Positions 1 to 38,076 of a DNA stretch of 38,076 nucleotides are shown one piece after another (within the stretch, counting starts at the first letter, position 1; every line of letters begins with the position of its first letter). The stretch comes from an uncultured Eubacteriales bacterium (GTDB lineage Bacteria; Acidobacteriota; Aminicenantia; Aminicenantales; Aminicenantaceae). The DNA lies in NCBI GenBank assembly GCA_964640835.1, contig CAZXJE010000003.1, positions 1-38,076 of the forward strand, in the 5' to 3' direction. The notes below the pieces were generated by a model, which saw only the letters and a program-made list of their open reading frames with translations, had not been told where the DNA came from and did no database searches. The translations under genes and the position numbers were made by a program.

Positions 1-149
1 GCCCACGAAGCTGTAGTGAACTACCGCAAGTGGGCTACAACGAAGGCTTTGTAGTAAGATCGGCTCGCCCGTAGGGTAAAAGATGCTGACAATATAATAA
101 TGAGGTGTTTTTCTTAATAGAGTTGTCGGCAGCTTTTATGAATAATTCA
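1..149 (+). repeat. Copy A of a multi-copy structured intergenic element, with its 5' part cut off by the window edge (conserved core, variable hairpin, terminal 11-mer)
   Basis: The core aligns with the copies at 17376-17566 (revcomp), 23632-23880 and 28865-29161. nt 1-30 are identical to 38031-38060. A hairpin GCTGACAA (85-92) / TTGTCGGCAGC (123-133) is flanked by AAAAG and CTTTT. The copy ends with the palindrome TGAATAATTCA (139-149), 2 nt from the pepD stop. Confidence 0.85.
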
Positions 150-1609: not shown

Positions 1610-1768
1610 TTTATTAATCCTCCAGATTAGATTAATTTACTCCGGTTATAATTATCAGAATCAAAATAATGACATAAAAGTCTTTCCGATTCAAGCATAT
1701 TTTCTCTTGCTTTGAATAATTCAGGTTAGTTGAGTTTTAAACATATTTGAATTAAAATCCACAGAAAC

Positions 1769-11845: not shown

Positions 11846-14338
11846 TCAAGAGAATTTGATCTTTTCTAGAGGCTTTATCATTTTTTTACACTTTCTTACT
11901 CTATCCTCGAACGAGATATCATCGATCAAGGGAAAAAGGACTTCTTTGACCTCCTTGTGTAAAATGTTGTCCAGAAGCTCGATGGAATAGTCAATCGATT
12001 TTTTAGTACCCGTACAGATATTCTGGTAGGCTTTGATGATATCATTTGGGGAGTAAATCAAGCTGAGAAGTTCAAATATGTGCTTCAACGATAGAGCGAG
12101 ATTCTTTTCCATATCGCTGACCAGATGTTCTTTCCTTCGGTCTGCCATCAGATCATGCATTTCTAGGAGAACAAAATAACATTTCTTGATGATCTGGATC
12201 GTTTTTCCCAATACGGGTTTTTGAGAAAACTGGATTTGGGGATGTTTTGTCCTCATTTTGTAAAGAGCTTCAATCATCTCTGTTTCGACCTCATTCTCTG
12301 TCTTTTTGAGCTCAGAAGCCAACAAATCCGCAGCCCTCTGTGTACCTACCTGTTTTAAAATATCAGGAATGGCTCTTCTTGTTTGCAAGTTGACATCTGG
12401 ATCCGAAAGATAGTCTTTGAGGATTCCTGTGATTTTATTTCCATATGCGACCAAGGCCTTGCTGGAAATAATCTCTACTCTTGGTGTGGATAGATGGTTG
12501 ATAAGGTGGGGTACGAACTCCCGCCTTTTTAGCCTGCCTGCGCTCTCGATCGCATACCTAAGAACATCGGGCGATTTGTCTTTGAGCAGTTTGTTGAGCT
12601 CGCTTGTGACGGGTGAGCTCGACTCTATCATCCCAAGGACTTTGGCCGCCTCCATCCTGGAAACTTCGCCTTTTTCGCCTTTCTCATCCACAATTTTGTC
12701 AAGCTGCTCTTTCAAGACTTGATGATAGATATCTTGAGACATGATCTCCTTGATTTGTGTGTTGATGTCCTCTTGGTCCAGGGCGTCATCTTCCTTCGGG
12801 AGGAGTAATTCTCCATCCAATTCCAAGAGTGAGTCCATTGCACATGCTTGGACCTGATCGGATTTGTGAGCTATTATGCTGCGCAACTCCGGACTCATTT
12901 TCTCTCTTTTGATAAGATCAAAAAGGTTCATCGCATACAAAACAGAGCTCCGGTCTTTGCTTTGGAGGGTGTCAAAGACAAGCTTTGTCATGTCGATGTC
13001 GACGGTCTCTGAGATGAACTTATCCGCATCTTGCCATTTGATCTTTAGGTTTTTTTTGACACTACCAACATACTCACGGGTGATCCAACGGTTAAGAAAA
13101 ATCCAGAGAAGGGAAAAGCCGATAACGATAAGACTTATATGCTCGAGCGAAAAATCAAGTATGAATATACAGACGATAAGGATGGTTGCCGCTATACCTT
13201 TAGCAAACTTGTTTACAAACATATCGATAAATACTTTAGCCTTGTATTTGATATCAGGTGAGATCGGGATGTACAACAATTCTCGAACCGACTGGTTGAG
13301 GGAATGTGCCAAGCTTTTATCTCCGCCTTTTATTGCTATGGCCCAATAGAGGAGGAATGCGGCTGGGATGAATAATATAGTAATCGAGGCTATCAAGAGG
13401 AACAAGGGGGCGATTGACAGCGCCAAACGCATCCCGAAATTTTTCAAGATCCGGCTTGTGAGAAAAATATGCACGAGGTAGGAGAATACGAGGAGCCCTG
13501 TGAAAAACGTGCCCAAAAACGCAGTCCTTTCGTCTTGGTCAACTAATACCACTTCAACTACAGAATTGAACTGAAAATCAATCAGTGTCGTTATGACAAT
13601 GGCTGTAGTCATGATGGCGCTCAAGATCAGCAGATACCGGTTTTTTTTGATGATACCAAAGCTTTCAAGATAACCGGTCTTGGGCGTCTTCGTTGAAGTA
13701 TTCCCTCTTTTTTTATCATCCAGAGGTTCTATTGTTTGTTTGTGAAGGATGGACACAAAAAGAATGCAGGGGAGGAGCAAAAAGGGGCAGATCAGGAGCA
13801 AATCCGTGGTTCCAAGAACCTGAGCAAGGAATCGGGCGGCCAATGATCCTGCTATGCCGCCTAAAAGTCCTCCACTCACAAGAAATCCGATCAGCCGCTT
13901 TGCCTGTCTGGGATGGTAGATATCATTGACCAAAATCCAGAATTGGGTTACTGTCGTTATAGTAAAAATGTCACACCACACCCAATAGATCATGGACAGC
14001 CAGCTCCATTCCATCTGGAAGAGAAACCAGAAAAGGACGAGGCTAAAAATAAAGAAAATCAAGCTTAGAGATATATACACATTCCTTTTCATTGCGTAGA
14101 TAAATTTTGTGTTGAGAGAAACAACAAAACCAATAAGTATAGCGGTAATAAGATAGGCAAAAGGAAGGAGCTCGGCGTTCAGCGATTCCAAAAAGTTTGA
14201 AATTTTAACGGGTTTTACGATGTATGCAGAGCATGTGATCAAGAAAAAATAGGAAAACATGAGAAGAGCAGTGGGCATCTCTCCATGTTTAATATCAACG
14301 AAGGGGGAGAGAGCTTTATGGATCGTAGTCTTTGTCAT
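11846..14338 (-). CDS. TLC (ATP/ADP translocase, Npt/AAA family)-like transporter fused to C-terminal HEAT repeats, paralogue 1
   Basis: Polytopic N-terminal domain of about 430 aa with the TLC-type motif FWILVNDIYHPRQAKRLIGFLVSGGLLGG. The C-terminal domain of about 380 aa is a soluble helical repeat domain (HEAT/PBS-lyase-like). 830 aa. Confidence 0.7.
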   Translation of the reverse strand: MTKTTIHKALSPFVDIKHGEMPTALLMFSYFFLITCSAYIVKPVKISNFLESLNAELLPFAYLITAILIGFVVSLNTKFIYAMKRNVYISLSLIFFIFSLVLFWFLFQMEWSWLSMIYWVWCDIFTITTVTQFWILVNDIYHPRQAKRLIGFLVSGGLLGGIAGSLAARFLAQVLGTTDLLLICPFLLLPCILFVSILHKQTIEPLDDKKRGNTSTKTPKTGYLESFGIIKKNRYLLILSAIMTTAIVITTLIDFQFNSVVEVVLVDQDERTAFLGTFFTGLLVFSYLVHIFLTSRILKNFGMRLALSIAPLFLLIASITILFIPAAFLLYWAIAIKGGDKSLAHSLNQSVRELLYIPISPDIKYKAKVFIDMFVNKFAKGIAATILIVCIFILDFSLEHISLIVIGFSLLWIFLNRWITREYVGSVKKNLKIKWQDADKFISETVDIDMTKLVFDTLQSKDRSSVLYAMNLFDLIKREKMSPELRSIIAHKSDQVQACAMDSLLELDGELLLPKEDDALDQEDINTQIKEIMSQDIYHQVLKEQLDKIVDEKGEKGEVSRMEAAKVLGMIESSSPVTSELNKLLKDKSPDVLRYAIESAGRLKRREFVPHLINHLSTPRVEIISSKALVAYGNKITGILKDYLSDPDVNLQTRRAIPDILKQVGTQRAADLLASELKKTENEVETEMIEALYKMRTKHPQIQFSQKPVLGKTIQIIKKCYFVLLEMHDLMADRRKEHLVSDMEKNLALSLKHIFELLSLIYSPNDIIKAYQNICTGTKKSIDYSIELLDNILHKEVKEVLFPLIDDISFEDRVRKCKKMIKPLEKIKFS

Positions 14339-14347
14339 ATTCGGCCT

Positions 14348-16840
14348 TTAAAAAAATGGAAAATTCTTCAGAAGGACGCGGCATCTCTTCACTCTTTCCA
14401 TGATGGACAAATCCTCAATGATGGGGAATATGGCATCCTTGATTTCTTTTTGCAAAAGGTTATCGAGAAGCTCGACGGCATAGGCTACCGAATCTTTAGT
14501 GCCGGTTCGAATGTTCTGGTAGGATTTCATGATGTCTTCGTGGGAATAGATCAACCCCAAAAGCTTGAAGATATTGGATAATCGAGTGATTATGTGATTC
14601 GGTATCTTAAATCTTGCGCTGACGTCTTGGCTTTCCTTAGAGTGGCGTTCATAGGCTTCGATCAGGTCTTTATAGTACTCTTTTACTTGTTCGGAGATCT
14701 TGTTCTTGACAGTTCTCTCTTGGAAATAGATATTCGCTCTTGCCGAACGGATGCGGTCCATGGCATCGATGAGCTCACTTTCCATGTTCTCTCTTCGCTC
14801 CTCTAGTTCCAATAAGAGAAAATCAGCCGCTTCTTGATTGCCGATTCGTGCCAGAGATGTAACCACTTCCTTTCTCAGCTCTATATCGATTTCCAAATCC
14901 CCAAGGTAATCTGCAAGAGTTCCGGTGATCTTGGGACCATATTTTTCCAGAGCGCTTCTCGCATCCACCCGAGTCATGGGATTTTCTAATTTTTCGATGA
15001 GCGCGGGCACATACTCTCTCTTTTGCAGCTTCGCCGCACTGGCCATGGCATATCGACTTACTTCTACAGAATCATCATTGAGCAGCTCTTCAAGTTTATC
15101 ACTCATGGGAGACCGAGAATCCGAGAATCCCAAGGCTTTGGCTACTTCCATCCTTGCCGTTTCTGACTCGTTATCTTTATTGACGAGAACCTCTTCTATA
15201 TACTCGCTCATGATCTCATTATAGACATCCAGTGACATGATCTCTTCAATCTCTTTTAGTAGAATTCCTTCATTGACTTGATCTTCAAAATCAGGTGCAA
15301 TTCCCGACTCGGAACCCTCAAACAACATCCCCACAGAAGATAATCTGACCTCATCCTGCTTGTAGCCGATCAGTTTTTTAACTTCGGGTGTGAGCTTATC
15401 TTGCTTGATCAGGTCGAATATATCCATGGCATACAAAATGGAACTCCGATTCTTGTCCTCGATAGTGTCGAGAACAAGCTTCATGAAGTCCACGTCCAGC
15501 TTTTCATCCACGATCCTGTCTGCACGCTTACTCTTTTTTAATTTTCCTTTGATGATATTGGCATACTCCTTGCTCACTCTTAGATTGAGCCCTACCCACA
15601 GGAGGATAAACACTATCGACATAATGCTAACAATCCGAATTCTTAAGATCTGAGCTGTCGGAACCCAAACGAAGATCATGAGTAATAGAGCACCGATGCC
15701 CTTTCCCACCCTGTTGAGAAACATATCGATGAAGATCTTTGCCTTATATTTAACTTCTGGAGATATAGGGATATAAAGCAGCTCTCTCACGGACTGATTC
15801 AGGGAAAAAGAAAGGCTCTTATCACTTCCTTTGATGCTTAATGCGAATAGGATGGTCGGGAAGGCTGCAATTCCGAACGAAAAGAGAAGAAGTATCAAAG
15901 GATAAACAAGGAGAGTTAAGCGGATGCCTAAGCGTTTGATGATATTGCTAGTCATAAGCAGTTGTACGAAGAATGGAACAATGAGCAATGCAGAGTTGAA
16001 ATATCCAAAAAAGGAGATGTAAAACGTCTGTGTAACTTCCCTCTCAATAACGGTATTATACTGAAAATCGACGAAAGTCGACACGATCCATGTGATGGTG
16101 ACGAGGGCGGCAAGGAGTTTCAAATAGTAAGTTTTTCTGACTGTTTTGAAACAGTCTAAAAAACCGACTTTCTCGATCTTTCCAGATTTTTGTACATCAT
16201 CTGTTTCCACCCGAGTAGGGGGGGGACTAGTTTTTTGTCTCCACCTGAATATTGAAGCTGCGACACCTATGTTGAGGATAAGTATTCCACCGGCAATATA
16301 AAGGAGGTAATCGGGAATGTAAGTAGCCAAAACACCGGCTAAAAGCCCTCCCACTATCCCTCCGAGGATGCCACCGCTCACCAAAAAGCCGATTAACCTT
16401 TTTGCTTCTCTGGGATTAAAGACGTCGTTGACTAATATCCAGAACTGAGTCATAAGCACCATAATGAAGACGTTGGCCCATACAAAAAAAACAAGAGGAA
16501 CCCATCCTAGATCTTTTATAAAAAGAATCCCAAAAACAAAACTTGAGAGAATGAAAAAAACAAGACTGGCAATAATGAGAAGAGATCTTGGGATCCGGGC
16601 TTGAATTTTAGAATGAAAGGCGACAACAAAGCCCATAAAAATGGCTGTGATTAGATAGGCAACAGGTAACCATGCAGCTTGATATTCGATAATGTACTTG
16701 GCGTTTCTGACTGATTTGATAATAGTGTAAGGAGCAGATATTAGAAAAAAATTGAAGAACAACAAAAGCGAGATGGTTTCTTCACCTCGCTTAATCTCTA
16801 CAATCCGGGATAGAAGTCGAAACAGGCGATTTTTGGTCAT
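14348..16840 (-). CDS. TLC-like transporter fused to C-terminal HEAT repeats, paralogue 2
   Basis: Same architecture and exactly the same length (830 aa) as the downstream paralogue. Motif FWILVNDVFNPREAKRLIGFLVSGGILGG. A 9-nt gap separates it from paralogue 1. Confidence 0.7.
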   Translation of the reverse strand: MTKNRLFRLLSRIVEIKRGEETISLLLFFNFFLISAPYTIIKSVRNAKYIIEYQAAWLPVAYLITAIFMGFVVAFHSKIQARIPRSLLIIASLVFFILSSFVFGILFIKDLGWVPLVFFVWANVFIMVLMTQFWILVNDVFNPREAKRLIGFLVSGGILGGIVGGLLAGVLATYIPDYLLYIAGGILILNIGVAASIFRWRQKTSPPPTRVETDDVQKSGKIEKVGFLDCFKTVRKTYYLKLLAALVTITWIVSTFVDFQYNTVIEREVTQTFYISFFGYFNSALLIVPFFVQLLMTSNIIKRLGIRLTLLVYPLILLLFSFGIAAFPTILFALSIKGSDKSLSFSLNQSVRELLYIPISPEVKYKAKIFIDMFLNRVGKGIGALLLMIFVWVPTAQILRIRIVSIMSIVFILLWVGLNLRVSKEYANIIKGKLKKSKRADRIVDEKLDVDFMKLVLDTIEDKNRSSILYAMDIFDLIKQDKLTPEVKKLIGYKQDEVRLSSVGMLFEGSESGIAPDFEDQVNEGILLKEIEEIMSLDVYNEIMSEYIEEVLVNKDNESETARMEVAKALGFSDSRSPMSDKLEELLNDDSVEVSRYAMASAAKLQKREYVPALIEKLENPMTRVDARSALEKYGPKITGTLADYLGDLEIDIELRKEVVTSLARIGNQEAADFLLLELEERRENMESELIDAMDRIRSARANIYFQERTVKNKISEQVKEYYKDLIEAYERHSKESQDVSARFKIPNHIITRLSNIFKLLGLIYSHEDIMKSYQNIRTGTKDSVAYAVELLDNLLQKEIKDAIFPIIEDLSIMERVKRCRVLLKNFPFF

Positions 16841-17375: not shown

Positions 17376-17566
17376 TGAATTATTCATAAAATTTGCTGCC
17401 AAATTTATATTCTAAAAACATTCAATATTTTATTGGCGGCATCTTTTACCCTGCAGGCGAGCCGATCTCACAACAAAGCTTTCGTTGTAGCCCATTTGAG
17501 GTAGTTTACTACATCTTCATGGGCCACTGCCTGGCCTTTGTAGCGATATCAGCTCGTGAATAATTC
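17376..17566 (-). repeat. Copy B (complete) of the structured intergenic element
   Basis: The revcomp aligns base-for-base with copy C over about 125 nt. It is bounded by TGAATTATTCA (17376-17386) and TGAATAATTC (17557-17566). The variable hairpin is GCCGCCAA/TTGGCAGC (plus-strand coordinates 17395-17440), flanked by A- and T-runs. Confidence 0.85.
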
Positions 17567-17575
17567 TTTATCGTC

Positions 17576-17586
17576 TGAATTATTCA
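17576..17586. repeat. Solo copy of the 11-bp palindrome TGAATTATTCA
   Basis: Exact motif, 8-9 nt beyond the end motif of copy B. A similar tandem arrangement, with an 8-nt spacer, is seen at 37938-37967. Confidence 0.6.
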
Positions 17587-17596
17587 TAAATCTCAT

Positions 17597-17700: not shown

Positions 17701-18807
17701 ATGAAAGCCAGTGAAATCCAGAATAGAATGAAGCCAATTCGGCATATTCTCTTCATTGCCCTTATCACAGTTCTGTGTTTTACATTTTCTTTGGCTGAGG
17801 AACTGCCATGCGAATGGACTGGAGTCAAAAAAATCGTAGCGATCGGGGACCTGCACGGAGACTACAAGAACTTTGTGGAAATACTGAAAGGAGTTAAACT
17901 TGTCGATGACTCTCTCCATTGGAAAGGTGGAGAAATTCACTTCGTTCAGACAGGGGACATCTTAGACAGAGGACCGGATGGAAAAAAAATACTCGATCTG
18001 ATCCTGCTCCTGGAAAAAGAGGCCGAAGAAGCTGGAGGAATGGTCCACATGTTGATCGGAAACCATGAGGAGATGAATATTACGGGTATTGCCATCGACA
18101 ATCCGAGATATGTAACAGTAGAGCAATTTATATCTTTTCTTCCCGATGATTTTAGAGAAAACAAAGAGGAAGATTTTAAAAAAAAATATGACAAAAATAA
18201 TAACAAATCTTCAAACTCCGCTCTTTCTTATGAAACAGAGTTAAGAAATTACTGGGCCGATGTTTTGAAAAAGGACAGAAAAGCGAAAGCAGAGTACACA
18301 AGATATTTTAACGATAACTACGGAAAGTGGATCATAAAACACAACGCCGTAATAAAGATCAATGAAACGGTCTTTGTTCATGGTGGAATCAGCAATAGCT
18401 ACTCTAAGAAGAGCTTAAAGGATATCAACAACCAATTGCGAAGGGAGTTGGAGGAATTCCGGCTGGCACTAAAGAGGGGAAGAGCTTTGAGGTCTCAGCC
18501 GAAAATTGTGTACGATCAGAATGGCCCTCTGTGGTACAGAGGTTTGGCTATAAAGGAGGATGTGAATTTTGCGGAAGAAGTAAAAAAAATCCTGAATAAT
18601 CTCGGGGCTAAAAATATGGTGATCGCTCATACTCCCCAGAGAGGGAGCAGTAGTGTAGTCTCTGAAGAATTCGTTAGCCGCTATGATGAGAGTATCTGGA
18701 TCATCGATACAGGCATTTCCGAAGTGTATGGAGGTTTTTTAAGTGCATTGATCATAGAAGAAGGGGACATCTGGCTATGGCCAGAGGGGGAAATTAATGA
18801 AAATTAA
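17701..18807 (+). CDS. Secreted PPP-family (calcineurin-like/Shelph-like) metallophosphatase
   Basis: PPP signatures GDLHGD, GDILDRG and GNHE. Signal peptide ...MKPIRHILFIALITVLCFTFSLA-EE. ATG at 17701 is preceded by AGGGAG. The ORF extends up to a GTG at 17662, so the start is uncertain. Confidence 0.8.
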   Translation: MKASEIQNRMKPIRHILFIALITVLCFTFSLAEELPCEWTGVKKIVAIGDLHGDYKNFVEILKGVKLVDDSLHWKGGEIHFVQTGDILDRGPDGKKILDLILLLEKEAEEAGGMVHMLIGNHEEMNITGIAIDNPRYVTVEQFISFLPDDFRENKEEDFKKKYDKNNNKSSNSALSYETELRNYWADVLKKDRKAKAEYTRYFNDNYGKWIIKHNAVIKINETVFVHGGISNSYSKKSLKDINNQLRRELEEFRLALKRGRALRSQPKIVYDQNGPLWYRGLAIKEDVNFAEEVKKILNNLGAKNMVIAHTPQRGSSSVVSEEFVSRYDESIWIIDTGISEVYGGFLSALIIEEGDIWLWPEGEINEN

Positions 18808-19588
18808 ACTAATTCTGGCAGTTGGATTTTTGATGATCTTGAACACAACATTCATCTGTGGAAAGGAGTTTCATCCCGTTCAGGAAAATGCAGACATGAA
18901 CAAATTGGAAAAATATCTAAAAACAGCTGAAATTTATGAAGTCGAGATCGATAAATATGAAGGGAGAACGGCTCCATGGGGAGTAGTATTGAATGATGGA
19001 GAGATAAGCAGACAAGCGATATTCAAGTATGCCAATCGGCCCCGACCTACTCTTCTTCCAGATAGCTATCATTACGAAATTGCTGCTTATGAGATAAGCA
19101 AACTTTTAGAATACCTCGTGGTCCCACCTGTCGTGGAAAGAGAGGTTAAGGAAACACTGGGATCTCTTCACATATATCTCGAGGGATGTTTTTCGCTGAT
19201 TCATCGACAAAGAATAGGCACAAAATCCAATGACTCCCAAAAATTTTCTGATGCTCTATGCGAGATCTCTGTTTTTGAGAACTTGGTTTTTTGTGAAAGA
19301 GATCCCGAAGATATTTACATCCAAGAGAGCGATTGGAAGATCTGGCGTGTTGATTTTTCTGAGGCATTTGCGCCTTTCGCGGAGCTAATTTCTGAGGCTG
19401 CTATCACAAGATGTTCGAAGGAGCTTTTCCATAATCTGCAGAGATTGGAAGCGAGCGAGATAAAAAAAGTGCTCGAGCCCCATCTTAACGACGAGGAGAT
19501 AGATGCCCTCCTCAAAAGAAAAGATCTGATCATCGATAAAATCAAGCTTTTGATCGAGGAAAAGGGCGAAGACGCCGTCCTATTCTAG
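18797..19588 (+). CDS. Secreted type-II-PI4K-like kinase-fold paralogue 1 (catalytic loop degenerate)
   Basis: Signal peptide. Shares YLKTAEI, YHYEIAAYEISKLL...VPPV.ERE, GSLH and the C-terminal LNDEEIDALLKRKDLI...EEKGEDAVLF with the paralogues at 21256 and 22142. CERDPEDI replaces NEDRxxxN. The start overlaps the phosphatase gene by 11 nt. Confidence 0.65.
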   Translation: MKIKLILAVGFLMILNTTFICGKEFHPVQENADMNKLEKYLKTAEIYEVEIDKYEGRTAPWGVVLNDGEISRQAIFKYANRPRPTLLPDSYHYEIAAYEISKLLEYLVVPPVVEREVKETLGSLHIYLEGCFSLIHRQRIGTKSNDSQKFSDALCEISVFENLVFCERDPEDIYIQESDWKIWRVDFSEAFAPFAELISEAAITRCSKELFHNLQRLEASEIKKVLEPHLNDEEIDALLKRKDLIIDKIKLLIEEKGEDAVLF

Positions 19589-19781
19589 TCCATTTTCTTA
19601 TCTAAGTGCCCAGAAAATGTGCATTCGATTATAATCCCAATTAAATCAATTTGTTAACAAAATCCCATTCGATTTTTCAACAAACTTTTGCACAGAAAGC
19701 GTGGAAAAGTAAATTAATTTCCGATTGACATTTGCAATCAATTATGAAAAATTCAAGGACGCTTCATGGAGGGAAAATAAA

Positions 19782-21176
19782 ATGGGATCTTCTGAGAATA
19801 GTCTAAGAAGTGATAAACACGGTATCTTCAATAAGTTTCTAAGCCTCTTTGCCACTGTCTATCCAGGAGAATTACCAACTGCTTTACTCCTCACTCTGAA
19901 CATCTTCTTGATCTTTGCTGCTTATTACATAATAAAGCCCATAAGAGAGGCACTGATTCTCGCTGGAAAAGGGCCTGAAATCAAAAGCTATCTCTCTGCC
20001 GTAATTGCAATTGTGCTAATTTTTGTTGTGAAAGCATTCAGTAGAGTTTCCTCTCGTTTTCCAAGACAGAAATTGATCACGTGGGTGACTCTTTTCTTTG
20101 TTTCTAACTTGGTCATATTTTATGCCCTATCATTTACAGATATCAGTCTTGGAACATTTGGCATAATTTTTTTCATTTGGATAGGCGTTTTTAATGTCCT
20201 GGTTCCTGCGCAGTTCTGGGGTTTTGCCAATGACATCTACAATCCCGAAGAAGGAAAACGACTCTTTCCAATTGTCGCTTTCGGTGCTACATTCGGAGGT
20301 TTCTTTGGAAGTGTTGGTGCGGGTGGGCTTGTCGAACCAATCGGATTATATCGAATGATGCTAGTTTCTGGCGCAATTCTATTGATTTGTATCATTTTGG
20401 CTTGGATTATTCATACCAGAGAAAAAAAGAGGGCCAAACTTAAAATATCAACGAACGGTCAAGCTGACTCCCAGCAAGAAGATGCGGAGAAACCACTGAA
20501 AAAAGGTGGAGGTTTTAAGCTTGTATTTAAAAAGAGATATCTTCTCTATATTGCTTTCTTTGTTTTATTGCTGAATTTCATAAATACGAACGGGGAGTTT
20601 ATTCTAGGGCAATATGTCAAAAAGAGTGCTCATGAAGTTGTTGAGATGGGACAATCAGAAGGATTAAACACGGAAGAATACATAGGCAAATTTTATGCGG
20701 ATTTTTATAAATATCAAAATCTTTTTGCTATTCTGATCCAACTTTTCCTTGTCTCCCGAATATTCAAGTGGATTGGAGTCAGAGGTGCAATTTTTGTTTT
20801 ACCCTTCATTGCACTTGGCGGATATGCTTTCATTGCCATCGGCGCATCCTTGCTTGTTGTGAAGTGGGTAAAAGCCACTGAAAATGGGACGGATTACTCC
20901 TTAATGAACACTACAAGACATGCTCTATTCCTCATTACATCGAGAGAAGAGAAGTATAAAGCCAAAGCTGCGATCGACACTTTTTTTCACAGATCAGGGG
21001 ATGTTCTGTCAGCCTTAGTCGTCTTTATCGGGTCCACATACCTCACTTTGAGCTCAACCGGATTTGCAGGTATTAATGTTATTTTATGCTTGATTTGGAT
21101 TTTTCTCGGAGTTTTAATAGCGAAAGAGTATAAAAGGCTTTCAGGAGAAGCAACTCCTGCAAAGGAAGCACAATAA
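19782..21176 (+). CDS. TLC (ATP/ADP translocase family)-like nucleotide transporter, short form without HEAT domain
   Basis: Polytopic protein with the motif FWGFANDIYNPEEGKRLFPIVAFGATFGG, close to rickettsial/chlamydial Tlc/Npt. ATG at 19782 is preceded by GGAGGG. The ORF extends to a TTG at 19725. Confidence 0.75.
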   Translation: MGSSENSLRSDKHGIFNKFLSLFATVYPGELPTALLLTLNIFLIFAAYYIIKPIREALILAGKGPEIKSYLSAVIAIVLIFVVKAFSRVSSRFPRQKLITWVTLFFVSNLVIFYALSFTDISLGTFGIIFFIWIGVFNVLVPAQFWGFANDIYNPEEGKRLFPIVAFGATFGGFFGSVGAGGLVEPIGLYRMMLVSGAILLICIILAWIIHTREKKRAKLKISTNGQADSQQEDAEKPLKKGGGFKLVFKKRYLLYIAFFVLLLNFINTNGEFILGQYVKKSAHEVVEMGQSEGLNTEEYIGKFYADFYKYQNLFAILIQLFLVSRIFKWIGVRGAIFVLPFIALGGYAFIAIGASLLVVKWVKATENGTDYSLMNTTRHALFLITSREEKYKAKAAIDTFFHRSGDVLSALVVFIGSTYLTLSSTGFAGINVILCLIWIFLGVLIAKEYKRLSGEATPAKEAQ

Positions 21177-21255: not shown

Positions 21256-22077
21256 ATGAAAAGAAAATTCCTTTTCGTCTTGGTTTTTGGTCTTCTTCTC
21301 TCACTCGTTTCTTCTCTGTATGCACAATTTACTCCTGAAGAGATCGCCGAGCGGCCGAAAATAGAGGAGTTTCTGAGGACAGCAGAAATTATCAGGTCCA
21401 AGGATATTGGAGAGGGCGTCACAAAACCGTATAAGCTGGACATGAAAAGTGGCGATGAAGAACATAGTGGTTGCTGGAAGAATCCCAGCGGAATGCAGAA
21501 GGGTTTTATTGAGGGATGGCAGTATGAGATCGCTGCTTATGAGATGGATAAACTGTTGGGATTGAACATGATCCCACCCACAAAAGAAAGGGAATTCAAC
21601 GGAAAGAGAGGATCTCTCCAGTTCTGGATCACAAGTGAAATGAGCGATCTTGAAAGAATGGAACAGGGAATTAAAATTCCACAGGATAAGCTGGAGAGTT
21701 GGAACAAACAAAAATATTTGACGAGGGCCTTTGATTGTGTGATCGCCAACGAAGATCGAACGCAACAAAATATCCGCTACAAGAAGGATTGGCGGACGAT
21801 TCTCATCGATCATTCGCGGAGCTTCCGCTCTTCTGAGAAATTTCAGAAACAGCTGGTTTTTGGTAAAAATGGTGTATTAGCTCAAAAACTGTTCAGACGT
21901 CTTCCGTGGGTGTTTGTTGAAAACGTTAGAGCATTAAATTTTGATAAAATCAAACAAGCTGTTGGGCCATATTTAACAGATGAGGAAATCCAAGCTGTCC
22001 TGGTAAGGAAAAAACTCCTTTTGGACGAAATTGAAGAAATGATCGAAGAAAAAGGAGAGGCAAACGTCCTGTATTAG
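21256..22077 (+). CDS. Secreted type-II-PI4K-like kinase-fold paralogue 2 (motifs intact)
   Basis: Signal peptide with LYA-QF cleavage context. Motifs GCWKNPSG (candidate ATP-binding Lys), WQYEIAAYEMDKLLGLNMIPPT, GSLQFW, ANEDRTQQN (21748-21771), and LIDHSRSF. Confidence 0.65.
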   Translation: MKRKFLFVLVFGLLLSLVSSLYAQFTPEEIAERPKIEEFLRTAEIIRSKDIGEGVTKPYKLDMKSGDEEHSGCWKNPSGMQKGFIEGWQYEIAAYEMDKLLGLNMIPPTKEREFNGKRGSLQFWITSEMSDLERMEQGIKIPQDKLESWNKQKYLTRAFDCVIANEDRTQQNIRYKKDWRTILIDHSRSFRSSEKFQKQLVFGKNGVLAQKLFRRLPWVFVENVRALNFDKIKQAVGPYLTDEEIQAVLVRKKLLLDEIEEMIEEKGEANVLY

Positions 22078-22141
22078 AAATTAATTTTCTATATGGCTAT
22101 AAAGTGTGATTATCAATATAAACATGGAAGGAGGGACAAAA

Positions 22142-22975
22142 GTGAAAAAATACATCATGACTTTTTCAGTTTTTATCCTCATTTTGGGATTCAATCTTCC
22201 TTCATTTGCCCAGTTCAAGCCGGAAGAAGTGGAAGCGCGTGATAAGTGGGAAGAGTTCTTGAGGACGGCTGAAGTTACCGGTCAAGATCAACCGTTTAGT
22301 GATCGAGAGGCGGTCACAAAGCCCTGGGTGGTCACCCTGGAAAAAGACGGAGTCACGAATAAAGCGATATGGAAAAATCCTGAAGGGCGAATGAAGGGCT
22401 TTATGGAAAACTGGAGATGGGAGATCGCTGCCTATCATCTGGACAAGCATTTGAACCTTAACATGGTGCCTCCAACAGTGGAAAGACGGTTTCAAGAAAA
22501 TCGCGGATCATGCCAGTTATGGGTTGATTCCATGATGAGCCTTAGACAAAAAGTCGAGAACAAGGTAAAAACTCCCTCCTATAAAATTTTCTACTGGAAC
22601 AGAGCTCTCTATATGCAAAGGGTTTTCGACAATCTGATCGCAAATGAGGACCGCCATCAGAATCAGTATCTCATCACTGAAGATTGGCGGATGATCCTCA
22701 TAGACCATTCCCGGTCATTCCGTACAGCCAAGAAATTTACAAAGAATCTTATTTATGACGAGAAATACAAGGAAGGGCCCACATTTATTATGAAAGAAAT
22801 CCCCAAAGACCTGTATGAAAAGCTAAAAACTCTGAGTGCCGATGTCATGAAAGAAGTTGTCGGGGAATATTTGACTGATAAAGAGATCGAAGCAACTCTG
22901 ATGCGCAGGGACCTGATCATCAATTGGTTGGATAAGAGAATTAAAAAAATGGGGGAAGAAAAAGTCCTGTACTGA
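22142..22975 (+). CDS. Secreted type-II-PI4K-like kinase-fold paralogue 3 (motifs intact)
   Basis: The GTG at 22142 lies 6 nt after AAGGAGGG; the ORF extends to 22106. Signal peptide with SFA-QF cleavage context. Motifs AIWKNPEG, WRWEIAAYHLDKHLNLNMVPPT, GSCQLW, ANEDRHQNQ (22643-22666), and LIDHSRSF. Confidence 0.65.
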   Translation: MKKYIMTFSVFILILGFNLPSFAQFKPEEVEARDKWEEFLRTAEVTGQDQPFSDREAVTKPWVVTLEKDGVTNKAIWKNPEGRMKGFMENWRWEIAAYHLDKHLNLNMVPPTVERRFQENRGSCQLWVDSMMSLRQKVENKVKTPSYKIFYWNRALYMQRVFDNLIANEDRHQNQYLITEDWRMILIDHSRSFRTAKKFTKNLIYDEKYKEGPTFIMKEIPKDLYEKLKTLSADVMKEVVGEYLTDKEIEATLMRRDLIINWLDKRIKKMGEEKVLY

Positions 22976-23601: not shown

Positions 23602-23631
23602 TGTACATTCTCCATAATTGTATTGTAATCC

Positions 23632-23880
23632 TGAATTATTCACGAGCTGATATCGCTGCAAAGGCAAGGCAGTGGCCCATGAAGATGTAGTGAACTACCT
23701 CGAATGAGCTACAACGAAGGCTTTGTTGTGAGATCAGTTCGCCCGTAGGGTAAAAAATGTCGATTATTGTAATAAGAGCCATGAAAATGGAAACGTTAAA
23801 TTGATTTCGTGTATGGACCAAATGAGTTGTCAAAATTGTTTTATTTGTAGTAAGAATCGACATTTTTTATGAATAATTCA
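23632..23880 (+). repeat. Copy C (complete) of the structured intergenic element, lying between sat and cysC
   Basis: Bounded by TGAATTATTCA (23632-23642) and TGAATAATTCA (23870-23880); the latter overlaps the sat stop codon. The conserved core is about 23643-23756. A long-range stem ATGTCGATT (23757-23765) / AATCGACAT (23855-23863) is flanked by AAAAA and TTTTTT. Confidence 0.85.
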
Positions 23881-28864: not shown

Positions 28865-29161
28865 TGGGTTATTTACGAGTTGAGTCCAACCCACCCCACC
28901 CTAACATTAAGGTTAAGGCAGCGGCCCATGAAGCTGTAGAAATCTACTGCGAACCGTCCCAACCTAACCCGGGCTGCAACGATGCAGATGCCGACCCAAC
29001 CTACCCGGTGAGATCGACTCGCCCAGAGGGTAAAAGATTTCGATATAAAAATATAAACTATTCTTTCTAGATATCCAATATTCGATCTCTTGAACATGAA
29101 CATTATAACTAACTCATATCACCGAAAAAGTTATATATCGAAATATTTTATAAATAACCCA
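28865..29161 (+). repeat. Copy D (complete, expanded variant) of the structured intergenic element, with three C-rich insertion modules
   Basis: Same core as copies A-C, interrupted by CCAACCCACCCCACCCTAAC (28886-28905), CCGTCCCAACCTAACCC (28954-28970) and CCGACCCAACCTACCC (28991-29006). It is bounded by a variant inverted repeat, TGGGTTATTTA (28865-28875) and TAAATAACCCA (29151-29161). Confidence 0.85.
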
Positions 29162-29162
29162 G

Positions 29163-30158
29163 CTATTCGTCTTTTAATTTTCTTGCCATTAGATCCTGCA
29201 ACGCTGTCCGTGGATCCTTATTCTTGTAGAGGACAAGATAAGCCTGTTCATGGATTGGCAGCTCGACATTTTCCCTCAGTGCCAGTTGGTGGCTTGAGAG
29301 TGTTGTGGTTATACCCTCTGCAACCATTTTCATGTGAGATACGACCTCTCCCATCCGCTTCCCCTGACCTATCTCATAACCTACATAATGGTTCCGGCTG
29401 AGCTGCCCTGTACATGTAAGGACAAGGTCTCCCACACCAGTCAAACCAGCAAACGTATCTCTTTTGGCCCCAAGCGTTATCCCCAATCTGGTTATTTCTG
29501 CTAAACCTCTTGTGATCAATGCAGCACGAGAATTATCTCCGAACTGAAGGCCATCGGATATACCTGCCGCTATGGCGACAACATTTTTAAGAGCGCCTGC
29601 GATCTCAACACCAAGTACATCCTCAGAAGTATAGGCTCGCAGATTAGAACCTGAAACTAAGTGTTGGACCTCCTTCGCCACAGCATTGTCTTTAGATGCG
29701 ACGACGACAGCTGTCGGGTGGGCAATAGCGACCTCCTTTGCAAAACTGGGGCCTGACAGCACAGCGAGCTGAGGCACAAAATGGGGTGAAAAGATCTCTA
29801 CCATCACCTCACTCATCCTTTTGAGTGTTCCATCTTCAATCCCCTTAGTCAAGCTGACAATGATGTGTTGTGATGAGAGGTGGGGTTGAATTTTTGTATA
29901 TATGTATCGACAGAATTTGGAAGGGACGGCGACAAAGACGATCTCAGTCGATTGGACACATTCTCCCACCTCATGAAAGAAGGATACTGAAGACGGAAAT
30001 ATGGCTCCAGGAAGGAAAGTCTTGTTTTCTCTGAACCGGATGGTATCTTTATAGATGTCCTTTTCTCTGATCCAGAGATGCGTGTCTATGTTCTTGCGGC
30101 CAAGATGCAGGGCAACGGCGCTCCCCCAGGATCCACCTCCGATGACACATGCCTTCAT
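29163..30158 (-). CDS. gpsA: NAD(P)H-dependent glycerol-3-phosphate dehydrogenase
   Basis: N-terminal Rossmann motif VIGGGSWGSA. 331 aa. 4-nt overlap with plsY. Confidence 0.9.
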   Translation of the reverse strand: MKACVIGGGSWGSAVALHLGRKNIDTHLWIREKDIYKDTIRFRENKTFLPGAIFPSSVSFFHEVGECVQSTEIVFVAVPSKFCRYIYTKIQPHLSSQHIIVSLTKGIEDGTLKRMSEVMVEIFSPHFVPQLAVLSGPSFAKEVAIAHPTAVVVASKDNAVAKEVQHLVSGSNLRAYTSEDVLGVEIAGALKNVVAIAAGISDGLQFGDNSRAALITRGLAEITRLGITLGAKRDTFAGLTGVGDLVLTCTGQLSRNHYVGYEIGQGKRMGEVVSHMKMVAEGITTTLSSHQLALRENVELPIHEQAYLVLYKNKDPRTALQDLMARKLKDE

Positions 30159-35759: not shown

Positions 35760-35892
35760 GATGTCAAAATTATAAGGGTTCTCTCTACTCAGGTCAATTA
35801 AAAAAGATTGTATAAACACCACGTTTTATGGCTATAATTGTAGAAACAATCCTTGCTGAATCACGGTCTAAGTTTAGGAGTGTTTTATAACC

Positions 35893-35903
35893 TGAATAAT
35901 CCA
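35893..35903. repeat. Near-copy of the 11-bp palindrome (TGAATAATCCA) within the hairpin AACCTG/CAGGTT
   Basis: 10 of 11 positions match TGAATAATTCA. It lies in the divergent intergenic region between asnS and the small membrane protein gene. Confidence 0.45.
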
Positions 35904-35946
35904 GGTTGAGTATTTTAGATATATTATATGTTAAGGAGGAGAGAGA

Positions 35947-37956: not shown

Positions 37957-38076
37957 TGGATTATTCACGATCCGACCCGTCCCGCCCTAACGCCAACCCA
38001 CCCCACCCTAACATTAAGGTTGAGGCAGTGGCCCACGAAGCTGTAGTGAACTACCGCAAGCCGTCCCAACCTAACC
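37957..38076 (+). repeat. Copy E of the structured element (expanded variant), with its 3' part cut off by the window edge
   Basis: Starts with TGGATTATTCA. It contains tandem C-rich modules CCGACCCGTCCCGCCCTAAC (37972-37991) and CCAACCCACCCCACCCTAAC (37993-38012). These are followed by the core (38031-38060, identical to nt 1-30) and module CCGTCCCAACCTAACC. Confidence 0.85.

Follow-up and report, generated by a model that had tools for sequence, protein, structure and literature searches.

An intergenic element of Aminicenantes with a transposon-like shell and a strand-specific folded core

The stretch of DNA analysed here, called the window, comprises 38,076 nucleotides (nt) of contig CAZXJE010000003.1 (assembly GCA_964640835.1, positions 1 to 38,076 of the forward strand). 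It was deposited for an uncultured Eubacteriales bacterium and is placed by GTDB in the Aminicenantaceae. It contains five copies of an intergenic repeated element, designated A to E. The element consists of the shell of a miniature inverted-repeat transposable element (MITE) and of a cargo, the core, whose fold is selected on one strand; shells that carry the core are called composites. A previous reading of the window, made from the sequence only, had described a multi-copy intergenic element with covariation-supported helices at these five places, and both parts of that description are borne out. With a sequence profile made from 43 relatives, five core copies and no sixth are found in the window, at 1-81 (the core part of copy A), 17567-17444 on the minus strand (B), 23632-23755 (C), 28865-29035 (D) and 37957-38070 (E). 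A repeat search of the window recovers the same copies, which are located as follows.

1..149, plus strand: copy A, its 5' part lost at the window start
17376..17567, minus strand: copy B, a complete composite with the short type of the end stem P6
23632..23880, plus strand: copy C, a complete composite element, 5'-TG...CA-3'
28865..29161, plus strand: copy D, a composite with an orthologue in locus L057
37957..38076, plus strand: copy E, lost at the window end, with two 5' C-rich modules and an orthologue in locus L069

Copy B is also orthologous to a copy elsewhere (L075). Terminal inverted repeats (TGGATTATTCA...TGAATAATTCA; in copy C TGAATTATTCA...TGAATAATTCA) delimit every complete copy; they pair and covary, and the sequence-only reading had missed them. 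The fold is based on a structure alignment of 43 insert-free copies that is gapless after excision of the variable loop. The outer terminal repeats pair with each other as stem P0. The core is one long imperfect hairpin of about 100 nt in a single register, a rod composed of P1, P2 and P3. This rod is interrupted by a conserved 6x6 internal loop, with GAGGCA opposite AACGAA, and ends in the terminal hairpin P4, which keeps a constant pyrimidine-pyrimidine mismatch (U-C or U-U). The rod is followed by a mini-hairpin of 3 base pairs, P5, whose loop in the family is mostly C-GNA-G, and by stem P6, which consists of an A run, a variable arm and a T run. Since P0, P1, P5 and P6 adjoin without any unpaired nucleotide, they form a perfect four-way junction. 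The same junction is returned unprompted by the minimum-free-energy fold of copy C and by RNAalifold for the 43-copy alignment. The plus strand of copy C folds with -81.2 kcal/mol (z -6.7) and the minus strand with -60.7 kcal/mol (z -4.9), a difference of about 20 kcal/mol. The parts of copy C are given below.

23630..23642, plus strand: 5' terminal inverted repeat CCTGAATTATTCA, the 5' strand of stem P0
23643..23741, plus strand: core rod, P1, P2 and P3 in one continuous register
23666-23671 and 23713-23718, plus strand: conserved 6x6 internal loop
23684-23701, plus strand: hairpin P4, the tip of the rod
23742..23750, plus strand: mini-hairpin P5, CCC-GUA-GGG
23751..23869, plus strand: P6, the inner part of the long inverted repeat of the shell, with arms 23751-23766 and 23854-23869 and a variable AT-rich loop
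23870..23882, plus strand: 3' terminal inverted repeat TGAATAATTCAGC

The pairing is strongly maintained in the family. For the 67 named pairs, 93.0% of the alignment cells hold standard pairs, and 29 pairs (164 cells) have double-sided changes. In 500 column shuffles no value as high was obtained for any of five measures, and when the 3' partners are slid by 1-3 columns the pairing is only 35-43% and the covariation score falls from 0.21 to 0.04-0.06. Stem P0 is 92.8% paired, with both sides changed in six of its 13 pairs; the terminal repeats of copy D (TGGGTTATTTA / TAAATAACCCA) have three changes, all compensated. The best-covarying helix of the family is the long-range pairing of CGAGCUGAU (23643-23651) with AUCAGUUCG (23733-23741), which the first reading had proposed and which is present in the sequence. 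Pair 22-110 occurs in three states (UA 16, CG 14, UG 11), pair 28-104 is CG in 20 copies and UG in 20, and P5 pair 118-122 is CG in 36 and UA in 5. The proposed exchange of C-G for A-U in the hairpin GMUGUAG-UGAA-CUACCKC is found again at P4 pair 59-74 (CG 34, AU 7). The end stem, said to be variable in sequence and always paired, has double changes in 8 of 14 pairs.

The distribution of wobble pairs differs between the two strands. In the rod, G-U is found in 202 cells and A-C in 15. Three rod positions are G-U in 33-42 of the 43 copies; this pair is found at 29-103 in 41 copies and at 48-84 in 42. Where a rod position alternates between two Watson-Crick pairs, the intermediate is always G-U and not A-C. 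The P0 pair 8-172 (GU 25, AU 9, GC 8, AC 1) has the same wobble direction as the rod. P6 is strand-symmetric, with 10 G-U against 7 A-C. The excess of G-U over A-C in the core and P0 indicates that one strand, the plus strand, is the folded and selected one. The claim that G-U wobbles are tolerated only in the plus orientation is thus correct for the core rod, P6 being symmetric. Plus-strand selection holds for the core and P0, and fits RNA and single-stranded DNA alike.

A second hairpin of the sequence-only reading, CUACAA/UUGUAG, has to be replaced. It is 91% paired, but double changes are limited to two of its pairs, in four cells. It cannot form together with P2 and P3, which between them carry far more covariation, and it is broken in variants such as L022, where P2 is kept (GCCGUAACUGC versus GCAGAUGCGG). 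This hairpin may form where a C-rich module replaces the 5' strand of P2.

The shell is also found without cargo. The bare shell is 142 bp long from TG to CA, with 27-bp terminal inverted repeats (CCTGAATTATTCATAAAAAATGTCGAT) and an AT-rich centre, in the order outer repeat, A-run stem, AT-rich centre, T-run stem and outer repeat. There are 28 stand-alone shells of 136-143 bp, and a sample collected by means of the long repeat contains bare shells and composites in about equal numbers. In the composites the core (108-125 nt with P5) splits the left repeat into an outer part of 13 bp and an inner part of 14 bp. Core and P5 are inserted at the same site and in the same orientation in all composites, between TTCA and TAAAAAATG of the left repeat. 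Complete composites range from 189 to 302 bp, with one internal-deletion copy of 115 bp, and their terminal repeats are 13-16 bp long, compared with 27 bp in the shells. P6 has two major types and at least ten minor types. One copy (L004) has the core without P5 and P6, and copies in L045, L061 and L002 have other cores.

The core itself is also modular. C-rich mini-modules (CCGACCCAACCTAACCCG, CCAACCCACCCCACCCTAAC) and a G-rich complement (GGGTAGGTTGGGTCGG), 15-17 nt in length, have set positions within the core and are absent from the rest of the fetched DNA; they are gained or lost within the core even between orthologues. Copy D has three C-rich mini-modules, at 28886-28905, 28954-28971 and 28991-29007, and its L057 orthologue lacks exactly these three; copy E and its orthologue in L069 differ in the same manner. 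Of the 12 copies with the G-rich block, 10 also have a C-rich block; of the 68 copies that lack the G-rich block, 23 have one (p ~0.002, Fisher estimate). This bears on the missing 3' strand of copy E, for which the exact partner UCGGAUCG had been predicted. In the relatives with the same 5' strand, CGAUCCGACCC... (L007 and L015), that partner is not seen and its place is taken by the G-rich block; the site orthologous to copy E in L069 has the G-rich block (GGGTWAGGTTGGGTCGG) in the 3' strand as well. The exact predicted sequence is therefore not supported, but compensation does occur, as the G-rich block pairing with this type of 5' strand amounts to compensation by helix insertion. The C-rich modules (28886-29007 and 37965-38076) also make the opposite strand rich in G tracts (GGGTGGGGTGGGTTGG and similar), which could form G-quadruplexes.

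Part of this evidence would also be expected from an ordinary MITE without structural selection, in which covariation came from subfamilies and from homogenisation of a quasi-palindrome at the DNA level, by template switching or by gene conversion between its two arms. The rod, an imperfect palindrome, matches itself on the opposite strand, variant pairs shift together between orthologues, and the G-rich modules tend to accompany the complementary C-rich ones. However, correction of a palindrome is strand-blind and yields perfect Watson-Crick pairing, so it cannot give the G-U to A-C ratio of the rod or G-U pairs fixed in more than 95% of copies at some positions. The 6x6 loop and the pyrimidine mismatch of P4 are kept and not "repaired", and orthologous copies are conserved at least as well as the flanking genes (87-99% identity for the copies, 86-93% for flanking coding DNA). 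The asymmetry of the wobble pairs together with the preserved mismatches contradicts a purely mutational origin of the covariation, and we consider this explanation very unlikely.

The copies show the turnover of a mobile element. At the site of copy C, locus L010 has only a 30-nt solo long repeat; upstream of the sulfate adenylyltransferase gene a copy is present in the same locus and absent from the window. In L012 a short palindromic remnant stands where L017 carries a copy. Solo ends, tandem arrangements and internal-deletion derivatives all occur, and in about one-fifth of the copies a solo 3' repeat lies about 9 nt upstream. Three independent deletion derivatives (L008 ~228-295, L024 ~1131-1203 and L054 ~289-337) break immediately after GGCCCAYGAAG, at the base of P4. 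Of the two possibilities named in the sequence-only reading, a small RNA (sRNA) family or a transcribed MITE, the MITE part is supported by the terminal inverted repeats, the stand-alone 142-bp shell, the solo ends, the deletion derivatives and the differences in presence between genomes. The shell can be regarded as a conventional MITE.

The target sites are different in shells and composites. Among 28 bare shells, seven are flanked on both sides by an identical 4-nt sequence of the form NTAN (1.8 expected), a weak sign of a 4-bp target duplication. Composites show no duplication of 2-9 bp at offsets 0-3. A TA duplication of the IS630 or Correia kind was considered for them and rejected, as TA on both sides is found in 15 of 81, the chance level. 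Site-specific integration with direct attL/attR ends was also rejected, since the central base is T at the left and A at the right in 40 of 43 copies and the ends of copy D match only as inverted repeats (11/11, against 4/11 as direct repeats). No autonomous insertion sequence (IS) with the ends of the element was found in the fetched loci. Two pairs of long repeats 1.6 kb apart were found to enclose host genes (CinA-like and KDO-transferase-like, named from translations) and no transposase. No partner enzyme emerged from the neighbouring genes, the recurrent ones (ABC ATPases, HD-GYP, FtsX, SDR enzymes, kinases and others) all being housekeeping genes. A scan for the terminal repeat with other cargo (ACCTGGATTATTCAR) gave mostly chance matches in unrelated taxa, and solo palindromes in Aminicenantes.

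The position of the element relative to genes depends on the presence of the core and on the end considered. The distances from each end to the stop codon of a gene ending at it and to the start codon of a gene starting at it are as follows.

Composite 3' (P6) end: stop codon at a median of 1 nt, 23/28 within 5 nt; start codon at a median of 20 nt, 27/42 within 25 nt
Composite 5' end: stop codon at a median of 45 nt, 1/27 within 5 nt; start codon at a median of 98 nt, 5/39 within 25 nt
Bare shells, either end: stop codon at a median of 51 nt; start codon at a median of 102 nt

The two ends of the composites differ with p = 1e-9 for stop codons within 5 nt and p = 3e-6 for start codons within 25 nt. 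The usual spacers of 50-100 nt are retained at the composite 5' end and at both ends of the shells. At the composite 3' end the stop codon is often a TAA formed from the TTA after CAGG, or it lies inside the repeat. The latter is seen in copy C, where the TGA stop (23878-23880) of the minus-strand sulfate adenylyltransferase gene falls within the 3' terminal repeat. Copy A ends 2 nt from the stop codon (152-154) of the minus-strand gene 152-1609, and the stop codon at 29163-29165 is 2 nt past the terminal repeat of copy D. Upstream of the composite 5' ends no conserved module was found other than solo ends and orthologues, and the loose placement of the 5' side is not explained in this way. 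Because the asymmetry is limited to core-bearing copies, their 3' side appears able to replace spacers that normally hold terminators or promoters.

The sequence-only reading had compared the end stem with a bidirectional terminator. A portable bidirectional intrinsic terminator would agree with a stem flanked by an A run and a T run and with a 3' end that lies, in most such cases, 1 nt after the stop codon of a convergent gene. The terminator scan found no terminator-like sites in the element, the loops of the end stem measure 19-85 nt (3-8 nt in intrinsic terminators), and the stem itself includes the A and T runs, which pair with each other. In addition, bare shells with the same stem do not abut stop codons. 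The analogy is not upheld, and a terminator function of this kind is most improbable.

The role that we favour for the cargo is one at the RNA level, acting in cis at gene boundaries, although on sequence evidence we would give it only an even chance. It is preferred because the boundary behaviour is tied to the cargo, G-U pairs are fixed and a non-Watson-Crick internal loop is conserved. According to this proposal the shell would be mobilised in trans by a DDE-type transposase, with a 4-bp NTAN target duplication suggested by the weak signal in its flanks, and copies would probably exchange parts by gene conversion. Once a copy was transcribed from its 5' side, the plus-strand fold of the cargo would act as RNA. 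The cargo might then serve as a portable gene-boundary structure (a transcript end, a processing site or an insulator) rather than as a trans-acting sRNA. The flush placement at start and stop codons suggests that it replaces promoter or terminator spacers and so shapes gene expression.

Several observations weigh against the cis-acting RNA role or against parts of the proposed history. The orientation of copies relative to co-directional neighbour genes is unbiased (14 same, 12 opposite), and sigma-70-like sites pointing into the element are not enriched (15 found, 12.7 expected). Composites lack a target duplication, with a 4-bp match in 2 of 81, and no transposase or partner gene was found in the fetched loci (about 80 per scan, up to 8 kb each). 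The covariation counts are inflated by shared descent and by the exchange of variant "alleles" between copies. In two independent orthologue pairs, for instance, pairs 53-77 and 58-73 change state jointly, a pattern more like variant exchange than new mutation. Finally, P0 pairs the exact DNA termini, which makes more sense for an intermediate made of DNA than for a transcript.

Some of these points lead to the main rival explanation, in which the folded plus-strand four-way junction is a single-stranded DNA substrate for mobilisation by a strand-specific enzyme, HUH/Y1-like or other, and effects at the RNA level are incidental. It better explains the pairing of the termini, the composites without duplication and an orientation indifferent to host transcription. 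P0 joins the exact ends TG...CA and covaries through a G-T intermediate (A-T, G-T and G-C in the comparison of copy D with L057). The junction without linker nucleotides would suit such a substrate, as would the breaks of the deletion derivatives at the base of P4. The same is true of the P5 loop form C-GNA-G, the motif of hyperstable DNA mini-hairpins. However, the known single-strand transposons (IS200/IS605) have no terminal inverted repeats. The behaviour of the shell, with its weak 4-bp duplication, is that of a double-strand DDE MITE. The recurrent neighbour genes checked near copies included no HUH or other candidate enzyme, and the gene-boundary asymmetry of the core-bearing copies points to an effect on the host and not to a need of mobility. 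A single-stranded DNA substrate is thus possible but doubtful.

The structured cargo could also represent independently transcribed RNA genes (sRNA, ribozyme or guide-like RNA) that act in trans or by catalysis and are only incidentally multi-copy. The large strand-specific fold with compensatory changes, the conserved sequence of the internal loop, the nearly invariant G-U pairs 29-103 and 48-84 and the lack of any matching family would agree with this. However, no conserved or enriched upstream promoter and no canonical terminator were found. The boundaries are inverted repeats of the transposon type, and hundreds of copies with freely varying P6 types and mini-modules are unlike a trans-acting RNA gene. 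This explanation is quite unlikely, and the cis-acting cargo remains the one that we prefer.

The element family was found only in Aminicenantes within the scans made. An exact scan for the conserved core motif gives at least 86 stretches, all in metagenome-assembled genomes (MAGs) labelled as Aminicenantes or as "uncultured Eubacteriales", and three single MAGs contribute 26, 18 and 19 loci among the core-motif matches listed. The long terminal repeat of the shell is found in at least 102 further stretches from additional Aminicenantes MAGs. In the window and the fetched loci, about 530 kb in total, there are at least 110 cores from at least 11 Aminicenantes genomes. One element-bearing MAG labelled "uncultured Eubacteriales" (L017, compared with L012) shares syntenic flanks of 93% identity with an Aminicenantaceae MAG, and this label is therefore probably wrong. 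Other loci, from CAZIMJ01 and CAYOSH01, carry the same label and also bear the element. The density of about one copy per 8-20 kb means that the element probably occupies a few percent of Aminicenantes genomes. Many copies sit at contig ends, which suggests that the assemblies are broken by the element.

The statement of the sequence-only reading that the core matches no known RNA class agrees with the search of Rfam 15, which gives no match at the gathering score for the whole window and only chance-level hits (E >=0.2) for copies C and D at E up to 10. No match to the element was found in phage records, plasmid records or viral contigs, and no description of it in the literature searched. 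The family is undescribed in these sources, although folding, mosaic, MITE-like intergenic repeats are already known as a general kind.

It is important to compare the element with such repeats. The Correia elements of Neisseria (CREE/NEMIS) are likewise high-copy non-coding intergenic repeats of 100-300 bp with inverted-repeat bounds, placed at gene boundaries and occurring both at full length and in a shorter, internally deleted form. They are simple hairpins, described as being processed as RNA when co-transcribed, and their target duplication is TA. The present element fails the TA test, has an asymmetric strand-specific cargo folding into a four-way junction and shares no sequence similarity with them. 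Modular or mosaic intergenic repeats that fold as RNA are also represented by the ERIC/IRU and pneumococcal BOX elements, which have optional inserts at fixed positions; BOX is composed of boxA, boxB and boxC modules with pairing ends. Both groups differ from the present element in sequence and host phylum and are essentially one imperfect palindrome. To our knowledge, neither conserved G-U pairs nor a conserved internal loop nor a four-way junction without linkers has been described for any of them.

The REP and REPIN sequences, mobilised by RAYT (a Y1 HUH enzyme), resemble the element as very abundant intergenic palindromes, solo or clustered and mostly at gene ends, in which pairing is maintained. 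REPINs are thought to be active in single-stranded form. However, REP units have 20-40 nt, a GTAG foot and no long terminal inverted repeats, and no RAYT gene was seen beside the copies among the few recurrent neighbour genes examined. The bare shell is similar to IS5-family MITEs in its length of about 140 bp, its long perfect inverted repeats and its NTAN flanks with identical 4-mers, which resemble the 4-bp YTAR duplication of IS5. As differences, no IS with the ends of the element was found, its composites lack a duplication and its structured cargo has no counterpart there. The integron attC sites and the ends of IS200/IS605 also function as single-strand hairpins with a covarying structure in which mismatched or extrahelical positions are kept. 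The R and L boxes (GTTRRRY) and cassette arrays of attC are both missing from the element, and the ends of IS200/IS605 have no inverted repeats, which the element has. IS200/IS605 use a fixed target of 4-5 nt 5' of the left end; the left and right flanks of the present element are mirror images (TAACC / GGTTA) and not a one-sided target.

In comparison with Correia, ERIC, BOX and REPIN sequences, the novelty lies in the strand-specific four-way junction, the conserved loop, the mini-modules that insert helices and the one-sided attachment to gene boundaries. A more far-reaching view is that the core is a new kind of strand-specific nucleic-acid machine on a MITE. It could be a single-stranded DNA or RNA four-way junction used by an enzyme to copy or place the element precisely at gene boundaries, or a new large class of structured RNA with a catalytic or protein-binding internal loop and hundreds of copies per genome. 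Even taken together, these two forms seem unlikely. The element is nevertheless a clean natural example of a transposon shell that acquired a structured strand-specific cargo. It opens two questions to testing: at which level, RNA or single-stranded DNA, the cargo of a MITE is under selection, and how this kind of cargo spreads. The data set is well suited to covariance modelling, with over 100 diverse copies, orthologous pairs and modular "expansion segments". The hosts are abundant uncultured bacteria of sediments whose non-coding biology is almost unknown.

Three solo ends are also present in the window.

1713..1728, plus strand: solo 3' terminal repeat TGAATAATTCAGGTTA, intergenic
17575..17590, minus strand: solo 3' terminal repeat TTTATGAATAATTCAG, 9 nt upstream of copy B
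35888..35907, no strand assigned: solo 20-bp palindrome TAACCTGAATAATCCAGGTT, a left repeat fused to a right repeat

The solo palindrome (window 35888-35907, TAACCTGRATWATYCAGGTT) recurs alone in Aminicenantes genomes (L125, L127, L128, L148 and L113), often right at a stop codon. The 3' repeat, read inward, closes all three frames with stop codons. In 42 of 43 copies the core can be read through without a stop in one minus-strand frame, which was judged non-coding; a 75-residue open reading frame with an ATG start on this strand across copy C (23636-23863) was rejected as a protein, since the variation is not three-periodic and the insertions and deletions are not multiples of three. No clear outward promoter was found in the element. 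A weak outward sigma-70-like site on the minus strand at 23635-23662 (TTTGCA-16 nt-AATAAT, only 9 of 12 positions matched) is built from the 5' strand of P2 and the 5' terminal repeat, and faces the adjacent gene, which is adenylylsulfate kinase-like by its translation.

Two groups of paralogues were noticed among the other genes of the window. Positions 11846-14338 and 14348-16840 code for tandem proteins of 830 residues with a TLC ATP/ADP-transporter/MFS part and C-terminal HEAT repeats, and 19725-21176 for a shorter relative of 483 residues. Interleaved with these transporter-like genes are three paralogues of about 265-290 residues (18797-19588, 21256-22077 and 22106-22975), the first without a Pfam match, which cluster with relatives from L010, L045 and L075.

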